A DNA stretch of 64,000 bases from an uncultured Verrucomicrobiae bacterium (GTDB lineage: Bacteria > Verrucomicrobiota > Verrucomicrobiia > Limisphaerales > Palsa-1400). Below, in pieces: positions 49,814 through 56,955 of this stretch; position 1 is the stretch's first letter; each line of letters begins with the position of its first letter. The stretch covers positions 1,248,001 through 1,312,000 of the forward strand of contig OY969763.1 of assembly GCA_963702845.1 (NCBI GenBank), read 5' to 3'. The translations under genes were made by a program, and so were the position numbers. The notes beneath the pieces are model-generated. The model was given only the letters and a program-made list of their open reading frames with translations. It ran no database searches and was not told the DNA's origin.

Positions 49814-50113
49814 TCACGCTTTATGGCGATCCGGCGATTCTGGTTTCGAACTTTGCCAGCGCGACTCGATTAGCAGGAGCCCGCCGGCGAACGTAAACAG
49901 ATTGCCGACGAGACCGGCCATGCCAACATACGCAAGTTTTCGCAAGGAAAGGCTAATCACTTTTGATGATTCTGATCCCGCGTCGTTTTTGCTCCCGACG
50001 ATACAACTGCTAATGTGCTCCATCGCCGCGTGCGATGCTGGGCCGATCGCGACAAAACACAGTAGCGACCAGATAAAACCACCAAAGATCAAACTCAAAG
50101 CTATTGCACGCAT
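49814..50113 (-). CDS. Small two-TM hypothetical protein
   Basis: 99 aa with two hydrophobic segments; left edge of the accessory island. Confidence 0.55.
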   Translation of the reverse strand: MRAIALSLIFGGFIWSLLCFVAIGPASHAAMEHISSCIVGSKNDAGSESSKVISLSLRKLAYVGMAGLVGNLFTFAGGLLLIESRWQSSKPESPDRHKA

Positions 50114-50122
50114 TTTTTTTAA

Positions 50123-50160
50123 ACGAACAGCGGGTTGTATATCACCAACCCGCCGTTCGT
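50123..50160 (-). terminator. Strong 15-bp hairpin downstream of the 206-aa gene
   Basis: ACGAACGGCGGGTTG-8 nt-CAACCCGCTGTTCGT on the minus strand (one G-U pair); no canonical U-tract. Confidence 0.55.
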
Positions 50161-50170
50161 CGAAATGTTA

Positions 50171-50791
50171 TTACGGTTTGCAACTGACCACGACTTCGTT
50201 GCTGAAGTTGCCGACGACTTCATTGCCGGTCATGAATTTGGCGCGGTATTCGCGCAACTCGGCTTTGCCGACGGCGAGCATGGGCCGGTCGTCGAGGTAA
50301 GGAAAATGCAGGACGACGGTCAAACGCGTGAAGTCCGGTTCATCGCCGCGTTTGCAATAGATGCAGATCGCCTCGCTGACGCCGAGCGTGGCGCGCAGTT
50401 CGACGATGCCGCCGCCTTTATCGACGGCGCTCAATACCGGCGCGGATGTGTTCAGGTCCTCGGTAATTTCCGGGCCGACGATGCCGAGAGCGTCGGCGAT
50501 GGCCGGTGTCAAACCGCTGGAGGCGCGGGCTTTTTTGGCGGCGAGCCGGGCGTGGGTTTCCGCGCCGAGACGACTCATCGTTTTGGCGTCGGCGGCGGCT
50601 TTGGCGGCTGCTTTGGCCGCGACGTTGGCGGGGAACTTGATGTGAAGATCGGTGTTATCAGCCGTAATCGCGGCAGTGTCACCGGGAACTAACCCAAGAG
50701 TGGCCGCATTGGCCAACAGCTGGGTCTTAAAGTTGTCATGCCAGGCCAGGAAGGCGTCGTCTGAATGGGGAATGAATCCGTCTCGTTGCAT
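50171..50791 (-). CDS. Uncharacterised protein: helical N-terminus plus FN3-like beta C-terminus
   Basis: 206 aa with strong codon bias; FIP..D..FLAW..NF and REYRA......G.FS.EV patterns. The fold call is inference. Confidence 0.82.
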   Translation of the reverse strand: MQRDGFIPHSDDAFLAWHDNFKTQLLANAATLGLVPGDTAAITADNTDLHIKFPANVAAKAAAKAAADAKTMSRLGAETHARLAAKKARASSGLTPAIADALGIVGPEITEDLNTSAPVLSAVDKGGGIVELRATLGVSEAICIYCKRGDEPDFTRLTVVLHFPYLDDRPMLAVGKAELREYRAKFMTGNEVVGNFSNEVVVSCKP

Positions 50792-50854
50792 ATGTTTCTT
50801 GTTTCTAAGGGTTTATACCATTGTTTAGGGCTAGTTTTTGGAGACGTAGAAGGT

Positions 50855-51052
50855 TTGTCCAGAGCCGCTGGCGTGTTGTCCAGCGCCGCTGGACAGTTGG
50901 CTGGAGCCGCTGGACAGTTGTCCAGAACGGCTGGATTGCTGGCCAGAACCGCTGGCTCCTTGTCCAGAACCGCTGGACAATTGGCCAGAGCCGTCAGCCA
51001 CTTGGCCAGCGCCTTTGGACAGTTGGCCAGAACAGCTGGCCACTTGGCTGGA
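50855..51052. repeat. Tandem array of about 9.5 x 21-bp internally palindromic units
   Basis: Consensus TTG(T/G)CCAG-a(a/g)ccg-CTGG(A/C)CAx. The unit at 50960-50980 is a perfect TTGTCCAG-N5-CTGGACAA. Confidence 0.95.
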
Positions 51053-51212
51053 GGGAATATTTGCTCGAACGAAGGAAGGACCCATTGCGCCCAAGTTCCG
51101 GATACCAATTCCGAAATGCCCGACCATGCTTTTTTGAACCCGCCACATTTTCCGGCGGCGTTTGTGCCAAAGGCCCAAGGCGAGGTCAAGTGCCATTTAG
51201 TTTACAAGCCGC

Positions 51213-51294
51213 CGCCAAACCTGCGCGCCACCTTTAAAACCCTTGTTCGCGGATTGAAAGTATGCGAACTGTTGGCGCAGATTAGTTGTTAGCT
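51213..51294 (+). mobile_element. attI-like recombination site, copy A1 (core GTTAGCT)
   Basis: 73/78 nt identical to 54737-54814; similarity ends within the GTTRRRY core, 7 nt before an ATG. Confidence 0.7.
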
Positions 51295-51301
51295 CGAACA
51301 G

Positions 51302-51763
51302 ATGACCGTCTTGCGCCAAATATTTGGGTTTGCTTCCGCCTGCTTCGTGGGCGTGCTTCTCCCAGTCGCTGCCGAGGTTTACGACGGAGTGTACCGGCAT
51401 TCACATGGTTCTCCAGCTCCATGGCCGAGCAGCCTCTTCCCCAAGGTTCAATTCGTTGCTCTAGGCAGCGCATTGGTCGGTCTGCTTGTCGGAGTTATTG
51501 GTGTCGGCCTGTTGCATTGGGCGCACCGCGTCAGACTAAAAGACTACGTGATTGCAGGGTTGGTTTTGGGAGCAGGGAGTGGAGCGTCTTTCACAGCGAT
51601 TTCCCGCATCCCGACTGACCCTGCTGTGTCTTGGGTCGTATTCATCGTGCTGCCGTCGCTCTCGATGGCCATTGGTTTTACCTGCTATTGGTGTATTTGT
51701 ATTCGTGGTGCAGCTAACAAGCTCACTGGAGCGAATGCGGGCGAAACTCCCGAGCTTAGTTGA
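51302..51763 (+). CDS. Gene-cassette-like four-TM hypothetical protein
   Basis: Flanked by GTTAGCT (51288-51294) and complementary AGCTAAC (51712-51718); reads through the attC remnant. Confidence 0.75.
   Translation: MTVLRQIFGFASACFVGVLLPVAAEVYDGVYRHSHGSPAPWPSSLFPKVQFVALGSALVGLLVGVIGVGLLHWAHRVRLKDYVIAGLVLGAGSGASFTAISRIPTDPAVSWVVFIVLPSLSMAIGFTCYWCICIRGAANKLTGANAGETPELS
51712..51743 (+). mobile_element. Truncated attC (left half only)
   Basis: AGCTAAC-aagctc-ACTGGAGC-gaatgcgggcg (R'' box, spacer, L''-like box); no right arm seen. Confidence 0.6.
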
Positions 51764-51906
51764 TAAACAACGCCTCATTCGTCGCTGTTCACGCGGGGAC
51801 TGCGGCGGCAACGAAGGCGTTCTCGGTGGATGCGGGTTTCGGCACCACCACCGTCTTCATGACCTCCATCGCGGCGAGTTTGCGCCACCATTCTTCGGCC
51901 TGCTCG
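51744..51906 (-). repeat. Repeat C1+B1: conserved 31-bp site plus orphan gene 3' end (EQAEEWWRKLAAMEV...AAAVPA*)
   Basis: Homologous to 55452-55599 and, for the B part, to 54655-54738. Confidence 0.9.
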
Positions 51907-51957
51907 AAACAAACAGGGCGCGGTGCGCGGGGTCAAGAAGGCAGAATACCGGCAAGC

Positions 51958-53574
51958 TCAAGGGTAGGGCTCGCCATGAACGGTTCGCGGCGCGGGTTGG
52001 AATGCCGCAGAGAAAATGTCATGGCGAGGATCGTAATAATCACCGGCGATGCCCATTAATCCGAGCAGCGTGTGGTCAAGTCGATCGGTTTGGTAAGGCC
52101 GGTTACGCAACTTGGAGTCGGTCTCAGGTTGGGTGCGGAAGGTCGAAGAGCGCCAGAAAATCATGGGGATTTCAAACTGCTCCCGCGCCCGTACGTTAAT
52201 ACCTGCAAAATTGTTGTGGTGGGCGACGTCCTGGCCGTGGTCGGAAACGAAGAGCCAGGCCACGGGTTGCGAGGACGCGCGGCAGAGAGCCAGCGAACGT
52301 TTCAGAACATGGTCCATGTAAAGTATGGCGTTGTCGTAGTAGTTGCGCTGGCTAATGGCCCAAAACGCGCGGCCTTCGGCTTTCAACTGCGTGGTGACGG
52401 CGTCGTCGGCGTTATTGAACCGCGCGAAGGATTTGGGGTAGCGGTAGAAATAGGCCGGATGGGCGTTGAGCAGGTGCACGATTATCAGTTTGCGGGGGCC
52501 GGGGTCGCGCAAGGCCTCCTCCAAAGCCGGAAGCACCGCTTCGTCATAGGACCCTGCGCCGCGCGAGGAGCCGCGATTTGCCATAACGGTTTTGTCGGCG
52601 TGTGAGGCGAAGACGGCAACCAATCCGTTTGCGTCGGTGCTATGATTGCTGATCCAGAAACTTTTGTAGCCGGCCTTTCTCGCCATCAGGAGCACGTCGG
52701 GCTTTTTCAGCCACAGGTCCGGGTGGGAGAGGTCCGCCGGGGTCAGGATATTTCTAAGCGCAGGGATGGTGGACGAATCGCAACTGACCACATCGGAAAA
52801 CCAGGTCAACTCATCGCCCATCGCATTCAGTTCGGGCGTGGTTTCCCGTTGGTAGCCGAAGCTGGGCAGGTTCAGCCGGGTGACACTTTCGCCGATGACA
52901 AAGACAAGCGTGCGAGGGGACGAGTCGGCGCAGTGCAAGGAATCGAGCTGCGGATCGGCAGCTGCAGTGGCCATCTTGGATTGCAGCGCGCGCGTCGCTT
53001 CGACGTCCCGCGCCCATTCCCGGTAGCGAATCGGAAAGAAGAGCGCCGGGTTATGGTTGCGAATGGACGAATTTAGATGAAACAGGAGGAACAGAATGGG
53101 GAAGGCCACGGCTGGTTTCCATGCGGCGCGCCGGACGTCGGCGGTCCGTGCCTGCGCCACGCCAACCCGCCTGCGCATTATCAGGGCGAATAGTGCCGCG
53201 AACACGGCCACGAGACCCGCGTGCTTGAGGAGAGCCAACATGTGGTGTTGGAGAAACTCAACCGCCTCCGCGCGGTCGGTGCTGAACATGGCTCCTACAA
53301 CAAAGTCTTCGTCAGGCCCAACGCCCAGGAATTCGCCCACGAAAGCGTGGAAACCGAGGAGCAGCAGGAATGGAATTGCTATAGCGAGGACGCAGGCTGT
53401 TCCGACTTTGGTTTCGTCGCCATGACGCGTGGTCCAGGCAGACACCGCCAGCACCGCGAGAGCGCCCAGCACCGCGATTTCGCTCGCCAGTTCCAAATTG
53501 ATCCAGCCCAGCATCAAATAGACAGCCGGGATCGTGATGAATGCTAGCGCTCTTGTTAACAGTATCATGCCCAT
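51958..53574 (-). CDS. Phosphoethanolamine transferase (EptA/CptA family)
   Basis: N-terminal TM helices, VIGES, catalytic-Thr region SSTIPAL, HLLNAH, YDNAI and SDHG. Start uncertain. Confidence 0.88.
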   Translation of the reverse strand: MGMILLTRALAFITIPAVYLMLGWINLELASEIAVLGALAVLAVSAWTTRHGDETKVGTACVLAIAIPFLLLLGFHAFVGEFLGVGPDEDFVVGAMFSTDRAEAVEFLQHHMLALLKHAGLVAVFAALFALIMRRRVGVAQARTADVRRAAWKPAVAFPILFLLFHLNSSIRNHNPALFFPIRYREWARDVEATRALQSKMATAAADPQLDSLHCADSSPRTLVFVIGESVTRLNLPSFGYQRETTPELNAMGDELTWFSDVVSCDSSTIPALRNILTPADLSHPDLWLKKPDVLLMARKAGYKSFWISNHSTDANGLVAVFASHADKTVMANRGSSRGAGSYDEAVLPALEEALRDPGPRKLIIVHLLNAHPAYFYRYPKSFARFNNADDAVTTQLKAEGRAFWAISQRNYYDNAILYMDHVLKRSLALCRASSQPVAWLFVSDHGQDVAHHNNFAGINVRAREQFEIPMIFWRSSTFRTQPETDSKLRNRPYQTDRLDHTLLGLMGIAGDYYDPRHDIFSAAFQPAPRTVHGEPYP

Positions 53575-53712
53575 ACCCGCAAAGCCGCCTCGGAATGCAG
53601 CAATACTCGGGAGTTCCGGATTGCTGTGCCTTCTTCTTGCACGGAACATTGCCCGACGTCAACTATAGAAAATGTGCTGGTTCCGCTTTCGGAACTAGCT
53701 AAAGTCCCGTTT

Positions 53713-54633
53713 GTGAAGAATCCCTTACGCAAAAAGACCGTAAGAGTCGGGGCGATTTGCCTGGCGTCCATTTTGGTGGCTTATCTGATTCTTGGTTTTA
53801 CCGGCGGAGGATGGAGCCCTCGGTTGGACGATACGTTTCAATGGGACGGCGATTCGATGCTGCTTTTCGCCCACCGGGGGCTGGGTCGAAGCGTCCCGGA
53901 GAACAGCTTGGCGGCTTTCGCGGAAGCCCGGCAGCTTGGGTTCAAGGCGGTGGAGCTCGATATCCGAAAAACGAAAGACGGCCAACTGGCGATACTTCAC
54001 GACCCAACCCCTAAGCGGACGCTGGGCTTGGACGTCCGGTTCGGCGATTTAACCCTGGCGGAAATCAAACAGCGCAGAATGCTTTTCAAAGGGCAGGAAA
54101 CAACCAATTACATTCCGACCCTTCGGGAGGTGTTTGAAGCGGAAGGTAAGAATCTCCGGTTCTATCTTGATATGAAAGAGAAGAAGTTCCGCGACGCGGA
54201 CCAAATCGCGAGCCTCATCCAGGAGTTTGACCTTTATGACCGGACGATTCTTGCTTCGGTAGATCCGCTGTTTGTGGTGTACGTCGAGCATAAGTATCCA
54301 AGGATCAACACCACCCTTGAAAGGTTTGATACCGCCCAGTCATGGCTTTACCGACTGATCCCGAAAAGATGGAAACCTGATTATCTCTCCGGAGATGCCT
54401 CCAAGGCGGACTGCCAGCAGCACTGGCTGAAGGAAAACAATTTGCTGTCCAAACGAATCGTCTACTCGGTTGATCGGACGACTTACCAGCTGACGCTGAA
54501 CTCCGGCATCAGAAAGGCGATCGTAGATAACGATTTCAGCCTTTACTCAGACTCGCTGTCAAAACAGGTGCCGAGCTACCCGCATGAGACGGCTGTCTCA
54601 ACCGAACGGCTGAGTGAACCGCACTCGCAGTGA
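53713..54633 (+). CDS. Glycerophosphodiester phosphodiesterase family protein
   Basis: AHRG, PENSLAAF, VELDI, TKDG...HD and IPTLRE motifs. Start uncertain. Confidence 0.88.
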   Translation: MKNPLRKKTVRVGAICLASILVAYLILGFTGGGWSPRLDDTFQWDGDSMLLFAHRGLGRSVPENSLAAFAEARQLGFKAVELDIRKTKDGQLAILHDPTPKRTLGLDVRFGDLTLAEIKQRRMLFKGQETTNYIPTLREVFEAEGKNLRFYLDMKEKKFRDADQIASLIQEFDLYDRTILASVDPLFVVYVEHKYPRINTTLERFDTAQSWLYRLIPKRWKPDYLSGDASKADCQQHWLKENNLLSKRIVYSVDRTTYQLTLNSGIRKAIVDNDFSLYSDSLSKQVPSYPHETAVSTERLSEPHSQ

Positions 54634-54654
54634 GACATCTGTCAGATAATCATT

Positions 54655-54738
54655 GTTCACGTGGGGATTTCGGCGGCGATGGGTTTTCCGGTGGATGCGG
54701 GTTTCGGCACAACCCCGGTTTTGGCGACCTCCATCGCG
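54655..54738 (-). repeat. Repeat B2: shorter orphan gene 3' end (AMEVAKTGVVPKPASTGKPIAAEIPT*)
   Basis: Aligns to B1 and B3 with the TGA at the same position. Confidence 0.85.
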
Positions 54739-54818
54739 CCAAACCTGCGCGCCACCTTTAAAACCCTTGTTCGCGGATTAAAAGTATGGGAACTGTTGTC
54801 CCAGATTAATTGTTAGGC
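54737..54818 (+). mobile_element. attI-like recombination site, copy A2 (core GTTAGGC)
   Basis: 73/78 match to A1; core 10 nt before ATG 54829. Confidence 0.7.
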
Positions 54819-54828
54819 GCATGTCGAC

Positions 54829-55431
54829 ATGTCACTTCTAAAACCACTTACTGATTTGCAGCAGGGAAATCGATGCCTTTTTGCCAAGGATTATGAAAGG
54901 GCAGTCGAGTATTTCTTGCGCCATGCCCAAGCGCATCCGCAGGAGCGCGCCACAGCTTACGTGCAGGTCGCGGAATGCTGTCGCCGTTCAAACATCATCC
55001 CTCAACCTCAGCCCATCGCCCCGGGAGTCACGCTGGCATCGGCGAGTGATCGGCCTTCAGCAGAGTATTACTACCGTTTGGCACTTCAGAGCGAACCAGA
55101 CCACTTTGGCGCGTTGGGGGGACTAGCCGAGGTTTTGCCGGAGGCCGCTGATGAGCGCTTGTCGATTCTAGAGCGGGCCGCGGCTCTCCAGCCCAGTTGT
55201 TTGATCTTGGTCGCTCTCGGCGATTTCTATCGAAGCCATCGCAAGGATTTCTCTCGAGCGTACGAGAGCTATCGCCGCGCACAGGAGCAGAGTCCCAGAG
55301 ACGAAACCGCCTATCGTCGCCTGAATGACATGTGCCGGCGTCTCGGCAGGCCTGACGAAGCAACGGAGTGGAGCGAGCGATGGAGAGAGGCGAAAGCGAC
55401 GAAAAAGCGAGTGGACGGGAAAACAGCATGA
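54829..55431 (+). CDS. Gene-cassette-like TPR protein
   Basis: TPR-like helices; flanked by GTTAGGCGCAT and its exact 11-bp complement ATGCGCCTAAC (55435-55445). Confidence 0.8.
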   Translation: MSLLKPLTDLQQGNRCLFAKDYERAVEYFLRHAQAHPQERATAYVQVAECCRRSNIIPQPQPIAPGVTLASASDRPSAEYYYRLALQSEPDHFGALGGLAEVLPEAADERLSILERAAALQPSCLILVALGDFYRSHRKDFSRAYESYRRAQEQSPRDETAYRRLNDMCRRLGRPDEATEWSERWREAKATKKRVDGKTA

Positions 55432-55451
55432 CCGATGCGCCTAACAAATGA

Positions 55452-55599
55452 AAACTCCCGGCCTTAATTAATAAACAGCGCCGTTCACGCGGGGACTGCG
55501 GCGGCAATGGGGCTATCGGCTGACGCGGGTTTCGGCACCACCATCGTGTTCAATCACCTCCAGCGCGGCGACTTGCCCCACCATTCTTCCGCCTGCTCG
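55452..55599 (-). repeat. Repeat C2+B3: conserved 31-bp site plus orphan gene 3' end
   Basis: C2 is 26/31 identical to C1; B3 ends at the same GCCTGCTCG boundary as B1. Confidence 0.9.
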
Positions 55600-55741
55600 T
55601 GGCCCCACTGGTTTGCGGCTGCGAAGCGTCTCAATGCCAACTCCAAACGGGTGCGCGCGCGGGGCGATCGGCCGGGTTCTTGGTCAGCGGGTCATGATTT
55701 CCGCAATGGATATTCCGGTAAAGAGGGGATGGGCCCCGTTT

Positions 55742-56122
55742 TCACGATGCTTTGAGCTTCAGGGTAAAACGAACTGGTATGTGACCAACGCTTCCCACAA
55801 TCGCCACGTTGCCAGGAATGATCATATTCTGGGTCGTGTGAATCGGCGTACCGAGCGGAACCCCTGGTGACGAATTTGTATCGGTTACACTGAGGTCGCC
55901 TTCGATCACGACGGCGAACTTGCCATCCGCCAGCGGCGTTGCGGTCAGAATGCAGTCCTTGCCCTCAAGTTGCAGATGCGTTGGAGTGCTGGCGGTAACC
56001 TCCACTACGCCCCAGTCCGTGACCTGGATGGCGCCATCCTGATTTTTGACAGCGGAGGATTTATTGCAGCCGGCTAGCATTAAAATGCTGGCCGCAAATG
56101 CAGGGAGGACGAGCTTTTTCAT
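55742..56122 (-). CDS. Putative lipoprotein
   Basis: MKK, hydrophobic stretch and LAGC lipobox; starts about 40 nt after attI-like copy A3. Confidence 0.78.
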   Translation of the reverse strand: MKKLVLPAFAASILMLAGCNKSSAVKNQDGAIQVTDWGVVEVTASTPTHLQLEGKDCILTATPLADGKFAVVIEGDLSVTDTNSSPGVPLGTPIHTTQNMIIPGNVAIVGSVGHIPVRFTLKLKAS

Positions 56123-56161
56123 CGTGTTAATTGTGAACACCGCATTGTAAAACAAGTTTCG

Positions 56162-56218
56162 GTTCAACAATTAATGTGTGACAACTGTTCGCACATTTTT
56201 ATTACGCGAACAAGAGTT
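56162..56218 (-). mobile_element. attI-like recombination site, copy A3, inverted (core GTTGAAC)
   Basis: Reverse complement matches A2 at 44/53 positions without gaps, ending at GTT. Confidence 0.65.
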
Positions 56219-56241
56219 GCAACACTCCGAAGAACCGGCGC

Positions 56242-56637
56242 TCAGATCCAACGCTGTACCGACTCACCTATATCGCTCGGCAACTGATTGAAGCACAGTT
56301 TGGATTGAGGCGCGTGTTCATGCACCACGTTTACCAACTTCTCAAACAGCATAAAGTTGCTCGGAACCGTTCTAACACCTGCTCCAATAAGGACGCAATC
56401 GAACCGCTTCTGCTTGAGCTGGCTTTGAACCACGGCCTCAGCGGTTTCGCCAAAGTCGGTCATACACGTTTGCACACTGTAACCGAGACGAGTCAGTTCC
56501 TCTTCAGAGGACTTGACACCAGCCAGCACCTTGGCTGCGCTCATGCCCGGCGGATAGCCGGGTTTTGAGAAATCAATCAGTGCCGGGTCCAGGCCAACCA
56601 CGAGTACACTTTTCTTGTCTGTCATAGATATGTCCAT
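56242..56637 (-). CDS. Conserved-looking hypothetical protein
   Basis: Alpha/beta pattern (FDCVLIGAGVR, LFEKLVNVVHEHAP); function unknown. Confidence 0.78.
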   Translation of the reverse strand: MDISMTDKKSVLVVGLDPALIDFSKPGYPPGMSAAKVLAGVKSSEEELTRLGYSVQTCMTDFGETAEAVVQSQLKQKRFDCVLIGAGVRTVPSNFMLFEKLVNVVHEHAPQSKLCFNQLPSDIGESVQRWI

Positions 56638-56955
56638 GTAGTTATTGAGTGACGGATGCAGGGATGCGGCGAAGCTAGGCCGTGCCGGGAAGGGCGTCAA
56701 GCTATACCGCGAGGCACGGAGGTTCCGGTTGCGAGGTAATCTTATTACTACATAATTGACGAATGAGTAACTTCATGCCACGCTGCTGCCATGAAACTAA
56801 AGCGTTTCGATAGCAAATCCGAGCAGCCACGTCCCACTCTCACCCAGCGGAACACCGAAACGCTTGTACCCATTCGGCTTTCGAACGCTCGCACCACCCA
56901 ATATCTGCGAAATGGCTTTTCCCTTCCCGCAAACCTCAATAAAAAGTCGGCAAAA

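Follow-up and report, generated by a model that had tools for sequence, protein, structure and literature searches.

How does the attachment site of an integron come to occur several times in one genome, each time ahead of a small gene and with no integrase gene at its side? This question is raised by a window of 64,000 nucleotides (the whole stretch of DNA analyzed, G000:1248001-1312000) from an uncultured Verrucomicrobiae bacterium, whose 6.03-Mb assembly in one contig we call G000. The window holds three copies of a noncoding element, site A (A1, A2, and A3; Table 1), which a sequence-only reading had described as resembling the integron attachment site attI, each copy loaded with a single gene, and had ascribed to a possible undescribed gene-capture system whose attI-plus-one-cassette units are loaded in trans and then move or are stacked as modules. 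Our analysis points to a different answer: the genome probably holds a dispersed integron, in which attI was freed from the integrase gene intI and multiplied, cassettes were loaded by the integrase (IntI), attI-type units were themselves mobile through IntI, and homologous recombination later swapped genes among the copies.

The three copies align without gaps, and the identities previously given for A1/A2 (73/78) and A2/A3 (44/53) were reproduced on recomputation; A1/A3 agree at 42/53 positions. The similarity among copies stops at the crossover point G/TT and the bases that follow are derived from the cassette, as expected of an attI site. The cores lie where they had been placed, but that of A1 deviates from strict GTTRRRY; likewise, the inverse cores said to close two of the genes are present (at 51712 and 55439), but the first open reading frame (ORF) runs 52 nt past its own, to 51763. 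Gene 3, behind A3, is without an inverse core. The distance from core to ATG is 7, 10, and ~40 nt for A1, A2, and A3, respectively. Across G000, an iterated hidden Markov model (HMM) built from site A identified 47 A-type copies, a few of them partial (E<0.01), and none in the reversed genome that served as the control; a second family, the C type, has 30 copies (0 in the control). Together, these 77 sites fall into 35 clusters. Many are solo sites heading one gene, and many others lead more than one cassette or punctuate arrays. Five prophage-like intervals, which we delimited manually on the basis of terminase, portal, capsid, and integrase genes and which make up 3.6% of the genome, hold 36 of the 77 sites, mostly antisense and in the space that separates terminase from portal or integrase from repressor. 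Judged by their divergence, the A copies are old (mean column identity, 76%) and the C copies are younger (median identity, 90%). The lack of intI remarked on for the 64 kb extends to the whole assembly.

On sequence grounds, we identify site A as the attI belonging to an integron family of Verrucomicrobiota. An IntI above the NCBIfam cutoff (TIGR02249, 265 bits) is encoded in 16 of 61 related genomes, and matches of the A HMM lie directly upstream of an IntI clade of 317 to 330 amino acids (aa), with E=1.2e-4 at locus L022 and weakly at L018-L020; the intI genes beside these matches came from a protein search. The 3' part of A stands beside an intact intI at L018-L022, L103, L108, L109, and L111, so that the attI-like character proposed for the site is upheld, and homologues adjoining intI in Verrucomicrobiota, suggested earlier as a check, were recovered by both profile and pattern searches. 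A pattern scan of GTDB provided 17 outside attI loci, all titled Verrucomicrobiota, with 4 beside a full intI, 8 beside 5' stubs of intI (7 long and 1 short), and 5 alone. When an HMM of these 17 loci was run against G000, A copies came first and accounted for 8 of the 9 matches at E<0.05 (the remaining one fell on the inverted arm of such a copy); the best match in the reversed genome had an E value of 1.8. The A consensus shows a direct repeat of an L-box unit and an inverted arm, which agrees with the simple site plus upstream repeats of an attI. The full ~80-bp A including the 5' arm was seen solo only (in G000, at L140 of G002, at L158 of G153, and at L188), never beside intI. We propose that A is recombined by IntI.

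That A is instead an attC, a pdif/XerCD site, or the end of an insertion sequence (IS) or a miniature inverted-repeat transposable element (MITE) seems hardly credible to us. The tyrosine recombinases of G000 closest to IntI are XerC/D, and the simple-site spacing of A is what we take to be dif-like, which would fit a Xer site; however, against what we take to be the XerD right arm, 4 to 9 of 11 positions differ in all 77 sites, the right half changes with the cassette and matches its inverse core (R''), and a homologue adjoins intI. Nor does A fold into the hairpin of an attC, the bottom-strand z scores being -0.11, -1.42, and -2.12 versus -3.42 for a true attC; a hybrid attC/attI hairpin was likewise not borne out by folding. 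With regard to IS/MITE traits, the 5' ends of A vary, and a target duplication is not clear at the one pair of filled and empty places (below). A comparison of A with what is presumably the LexA box gave no match, its half-sites being 17 nt apart rather than 4.

The genes behind the attI copies are, by the agreement of their boundaries, cassettes loaded by IntI. Specifically, among 51 GTT-core sites with an ORF, there are 23 (7/25 for A and 16/26 for C) where the gene closes on an exact complement to the core of that same site, whereas shuffling the cores among sites gave a mean of 2.9 matches, and none of 5,000 trials reached 23. The description of the small genes as integron cassettes thus held, and so did that of their attC sites as shortened: behind the first cassettes, attC is mostly eroded, a rough pattern finding at least 15 of 75 full-looking, 34 with R'' only, and 26 with none. 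Ten distinct full attC sites lie within 6 kb of the 77 sites, and some other clusters hold several; our first detector of full attC was overstrict, and the later rough patterns still undercount them. In the 64-kb window, no full attC was found by folding or pattern. Because the assembly is without intI, the acting IntI must have come from outside the present assembly or have been lost later. The idea of loading in trans may stand in the first of these forms, but no trans-acting gene is present in the assembly.

The same set of genes speaks to the proposal that a dedicated system moves attI together with one cassette. Many sites are indeed solo with one gene, a block of the window (50123-51906) is paralogous to G000:2347827-2345987, and a filled/empty pair exists: the related metagenome contig L188, 79 to 87% identical to the flanking G000 genes, has a 590-bp insert with A and a scrap of a kinase gene at a place that is empty in G000 (a gain in one or a loss in the other, with no clear target duplication). 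However, only one pair of first cassettes is duplicated among the 77 sites, and since the rest are unique, the cassette genes were not copied along with the site. Moreover, the ends of the supposed modules are not fixed, terminal repeats and target duplications are absent, and the sites in G000 lack a linked gene for a dedicated recombinase. We therefore regard such a module system as highly improbable. The DNA downstream of another site gave a 78% partial match to an unrelated place and was set aside.

What repeats is the spacer, composed of the 3' scrap of a host gene and an attI, and not the cassette gene. The spacers are the 3' ends of convergent genes fused to attI, and identical joins stand ahead of different genes. 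A join to a C site is seen in 19 of the 22 phosphoketolase scraps, at six points that are all microhomologies; at their other end, 6 of the 22 start at the intact G/TT of different attC sites and 3 at a degenerate one. Terminase scraps show the phosphoketolase pattern. The kinase scraps trace back to the Ser/Thr kinase gene next to the A copy at G000:2346445. The five that retain their start all have it at the stop codon, and in the window's three that point is a G/TT. These three escaped the sequence-only reading, as did a C-type attI end and the fourth, truncated site of the A family; one of the three scraps, at 54655-54738, opens a gene-less unit of 157 bp. The 12-mer that ends the C-type attI just before it occurs 19 times in the genome, 18 times at C-type sites and once here. 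The unit is bounded by crossovers and has an attI downstream, as an attI-type cassette does, and we take it for an attI unit of the A type that went into an attI of the C type. Its join recurs at G000:4285224 and 4318807 and partly at 4319144. Further scraps of host genes, joined by a common short element, were noted at cassette ends at L045:7348-7542 and at ~10900 of L043; from their translations, we take them to be the 3' end of a KdpE-like response regulator and a transporter fragment.

These observations would fit a dispersed integron that arose in four steps. First, as the paired cores show, IntI placed ordinary cassettes at the G/TT of attI copies. Second, where a convergent gene of the host or a prophage has its stop codon right against an attI and its cassette, such a donor locus may have been duplicated or circularized with a microhomology join that fused the 3' end of that gene to the DNA upstream of attI, the product being a host scrap plus attI spacer with G/TT at both ends that could serve as an attI-type cassette whether or not it holds a gene. 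Third, IntI would have brought such units into other attC or attI crossovers, and the repeated attI sites and scraps would have let homologous recombination swap and stack genes, chiefly in the cargo of the five prophage-like islands. Fourth, attC erosion, which is seen directly, would have locked the genes in. IntI may have been lost later or may have been brought by a passing element. Mobility of such units agrees with the insert of L188 that G000 does not have, and it has a precedent in the attI-type cassettes that IntI1 excises and inserts (PMC12901181). A likely benefit to each gene would be a loading point that stays with it, plus a promoter to itself, the latter at least behind C-type copies and the copies of relatives.

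An unlikely, though more serious, rival holds that IntI loaded cassettes only long ago and that homologous or illegitimate recombination, through RecA or phage recombinases, later spread copies that are now inert. The crowding of sites into the prophage intervals, which recalls the cargo hotspots of phages, agrees with it, as do the microhomology joins, the age of the A copies, the want of intI, and the one duplicated cassette, in which the crossover lies inside attI. Conversely, it does not account for different attC sites stopping at the same G/TT ahead of a phosphoketolase scrap, nor for a kinase/A2 unit that starts exactly at the G/TT of a different type of attI, to which it is not homologous. 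In addition, 16 of 26 of the young C copies have matching cores and different cassettes, which argues that loading continued after the C type had spread.

Several points weigh against the dispersed integron itself. No intI or remnant of it was found in the assembly: the best match in G000 to TIGR02249 scores 86 bits, and tblastn and a profile of 19 IntI proteins match only Xer-like and phage integrases, so that the search for a trans-acting intI ended without one. CheckM completeness is 89.8%, and plasmids could be absent from the assembly. The pattern that fetched the 17 outside loci was derived partly from A, and the three window copies are not among the hits of the HMM built from those loci, being connected to them through the A family. 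Of the 77 cores, 52 begin with GTT and 24 fit GTTRRRY. The joins of scrap and attI are microhomologies and not crossovers, and 13 of the 22 phosphoketolase scraps start at the stop codon or within 9 nt of it without a G/TT. In the duplicated pair of first cassettes, the flank changes inside attI and a mutated GGT core is shared, which suggests homologous recombination and not IntI. Finally, two results on the class 1 integrase bear on the mechanism. According to the accessible text of one report, insertion of attI by IntI1 at genomic sites does not exceed background (bioRxiv 10.1101/2022.09.11.507474), and new solo loci would thus need an attC step or another route; according to that of another, attI1-gene-attI1 is excised at once by IntI1 (PMC12901181), so that arrays would be stable only without an active integrase.

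Relatives show where an attI without intI may come from. A BLAST search with A and C matched only G000 itself (1 of 61 genomes and 1 of 31), and degenerate patterns were needed. Multiplied attI also occurs outside G000, on a smaller scale. In five relatives picked from pattern hits and mostly drafts, attI is present in 7, 5, 7, 2, and 1 copies, and none of the five has an IntI above the cutoff. Order-wide, the intI-side pattern occurs in 7 of 301 genomes, with more than one copy in 3; this set and the five relatives overlap and hence are not added up. The 7-copy genome G231 has no IntI above the cutoff; its arrays (L164 and L167), which lie in another bacterial family, are punctuated by a recurring attI-bearing spacer of ~110 bp. 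Inside intI, ~251 bp before the crossover and directed toward attI, lies a TTGATT-17-CATYCT box, and 13 of 14 long intI stubs end 2 to 51 nt upstream of it (that of L114 extends further, and some stubs share flanks). To us, this looks like selection that retained a putative cassette promoter (Pc) with attI while the integrase went. Many solo copies are without a stub. A site-specific left end of the stubs was considered and dropped as a rule, since 2 of 14 have a GTT no more than 12 nt away and 1 more ends precisely on one, approximately as by chance. A similar box occupies a fixed position in the C-type copies, two of which align to the Pc region of intI above the 99th percentile of random DNA. 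For A, a consensus scan of 50000-56700 found no promoter; a homemade promoter matrix scored 11.0 for A1, 7.7 for A2, and 11.3 for A3 at differing positions, the 95th percentile of coding DNA being 9.1.

Stubs of this kind also invite the view that each copy is the remnant of a separately gained complete integron whose costly intI was deleted up to Pc. In genome G062, five stubs are only 77 to 86% alike, stub ends among relatives are ragged and stop just upstream of the putative Pc, and in G013 (C192:987-3679, locus L189) an intact intI and its array are followed by a transposase-like ORF and then by an 89%-identical stub, an attI, and a cassette. However, all A copies of G000 are without intI sequence, identical scrap-attI joins stand ahead of different genes, and 77 separate acquisitions are implausible, which makes this origin quite improbable for G000. 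The stub of G013 starts at GTT and, together with its attI and a cassette of their own, is situated 2.4 kb downstream from the intact intI; its layout is that of an attI-type cassette in the array of an intI-bearing integron.

We also considered a further, rather doubtful possibility, a stable platform strategy of this group of Verrucomicrobiota in which minimal units of promoter plus attI travel as IntI-mobile circles, reside in prophage cargo, and are recharged by passing elements with intI. If so, every captured gene would head its array and be expressed. As they stand today, the sites may be relics.

Table 1. Features of the window around the three copies of site A (window positions; R'', inverse core)
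Feature	Position	Strand	Details
99-aa membrane-protein gene behind truncated fourth site	49814..50113	-	No Pfam or NCBIfam family
Truncated A-family site	50103..50166	-	84-85% to A copies at G000:1826861 and 2638455
206-aa hypothetical gene	50171..50791	-	Occupies position expected for intI
21-nt tandem repeats (family D1)	50834..51060	+	Upstream of 206-aa gene
Upstream flank common with presumed donor locus G000:2346445	51155..51212	+	51155-51291 93.5% identical
attI copy A1	51213..51294	+	Crossover G at 51288; core GTTAGCT 51288-51294
Cassette 1, 153-aa membrane protein, ORF 51302-51763	51289..51768	+	R'' 51712-51718, shortened attC
Ser/Thr kinase gene 3'-end scrap (antisense)	51787..51906	+	98% to G000:2346104-2345987; begins at G/TT on kinase stop codon
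Divergent gene pair between two kinase scraps	51958..54633	.	NCBIfam hits all below cutoff
C-type attI last bases plus G/TT	54646..54657	+	G at 54655
Gene-less 157-bp unit, G/TT to G/TT	54656..54812	+	85-nt kinase scrap, microhomology join, A2
attI copy A2	54737..54818	+	Crossover G at 54812; core GTTAGGC 54812-54818
Cassette 2, 200-aa TPR protein, ORF 54829-55431	54813..55482	+	R'' 55439-55445; attC remnant 55452-55482
Longer kinase 3' scrap with internal deletion	55483..55735	+	Begins at G/TT
Cassette-like gene 3, 126-aa probable lipoprotein	55742..56122	-	Weak YgdI/YgdR match below cutoff
attI copy A3	56162..56218	-	Crossover G at 56168; core GTTGAAC 56162-56168

Within the window, the truncated fourth site retains the 5' arm and palindrome; its simple site and G/TT are gone, and it is fused to the start of a gene. 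For the 206-aa gene, scans of Pfam and NCBIfam gave no family, ESM Atlas gave clusters without a name and a weak fn3 lead in 15% of members, and a metagenome locus search gave none; its paralogues stand divergently from A- or C-type attI sites at G000:2346445, 2198187, 5449045, and 5709466. The block paralogous to the donor locus carries a different cassette there. The right part of the attC of cassette 1 (51744-51774) is common to cassette 2 and G000:1723572; this 31-mer, which resembles the right half of an attC and ends in GAT and not GTT, stands behind different R'' sites in the window (again at 55452-55482) and also at G000:1723131, ahead of a phosphoketolase scrap. The divergent pair, a phosphoethanolamine-transferase-like gene of the sulfatase fold (51958-53649, minus strand) and a GDPD-family gene ending at 54633 (plus strand), is not cassette-like, is enclosed by direct kinase scraps, and is apparently captured cargo. 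Behind A3, the attC of gene 3 is gone and the gene is joined to the kinase scrap. A 131-aa gene of no known family (56242-56637, minus strand), which ends 24 nt before A3, may be further cargo.

Elsewhere in G000, five related prophage-like islands (L042, L047-L048, L050, L060-L061, and L063) with terminase, DUF4055 portal, and capsid genes carry attI arrays in two cargo regions; among the proteins covered by the scan, none was noted as a tail protein. Free phages with the site were sought in IMG/VR under three patterns, with 0 matches. A transposase of the IS110 family has six genome copies, two of them within cassette regions (L061:12515-13666 and L057:8159-9310), and a degenerate A copy (L064:5563) lies divergently ~730 bp upstream of recA.

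As for known systems, the novelty claimed at the outset does not hold in full. As far as the accessible text of the report goes, cassettes with attI in place of attC are known in integrons of classes 1 and 2 and are excised and inserted by IntI1; 96 of them were counted in 1,685 class 1 integrons, mostly with 14 to 18 nt of attI, and long versions (delta-attI2 -238 and one complete attI1-gene-attI1) and mixing of attI across classes are on record (PMC12901181). Reactions between attI and attI-like secondary sites also occur, according to the part available (PMC10127599). In these delta-attI cassettes, as in G000, attI stands behind the gene instead of attC. They are, as described there, rare, short, and inside intI-bearing integrons, whereas in G000 full-length attI is the main punctuation, with host scraps and without intI. 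The clusters of attC sites lacking integrases (CALINs), single attC sites lacking integrases (SALINs), and CALINs borne by phages likewise have scattered cassettes without an adjoining integrase, also in prophages, and a CALIN of a Shewanella prophage is headed by its own attI, according to the accessible portions of these sources (bioRxiv 10.1101/2022.09.11.507474; PMC9892861). As presented there, CALINs and SALINs are defined by attC; in G000, attI is the repeated site and attC is mostly eroded, and a search by attC would therefore miss most loci.

Complete integrons of the same bacterial family share the 3' part of attI and the style of attC with G000, and that of L022 also the layout of direct and inverted repeats of A; unlike G000, they have a single attI beside an IntI of 317 to 330 aa. 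A likeness of another kind exists with the promoter early stem-loops (PeSLs) of T4-type phages, in which a repeated noncoding promoter and stem-loop lies between unique small genes and allows recombinational shuffling. The likeness lies in the repeated unit between unique genes, since a PeSL is not an integrase site and its genes are without cassette cores. Taken together, the system of G000 is integron-like in its working and is neither a complete integron, having no intI beside attI, nor a CALIN. In the literature searched, which mostly excluded subscription papers, we found no genome with dozens of dispersed attI sites such as these 77 without intI.

Since surveys look for intI and attC and presume one attI per integron, a genome of this kind is largely invisible to them. 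The findings suggest that solitary cassettes and CALINs may have a further origin, that the restriction of expression to the first cassettes of an array may be circumvented, and that prophages may acquire cassette-loading points in this manner. They also provide two attI families from nature, an IntI clade to match, and, as a candidate substrate, a defined unit of 157 bp; with these, the mobility of attI x attI and attI x attC becomes testable beyond clinical integrons.

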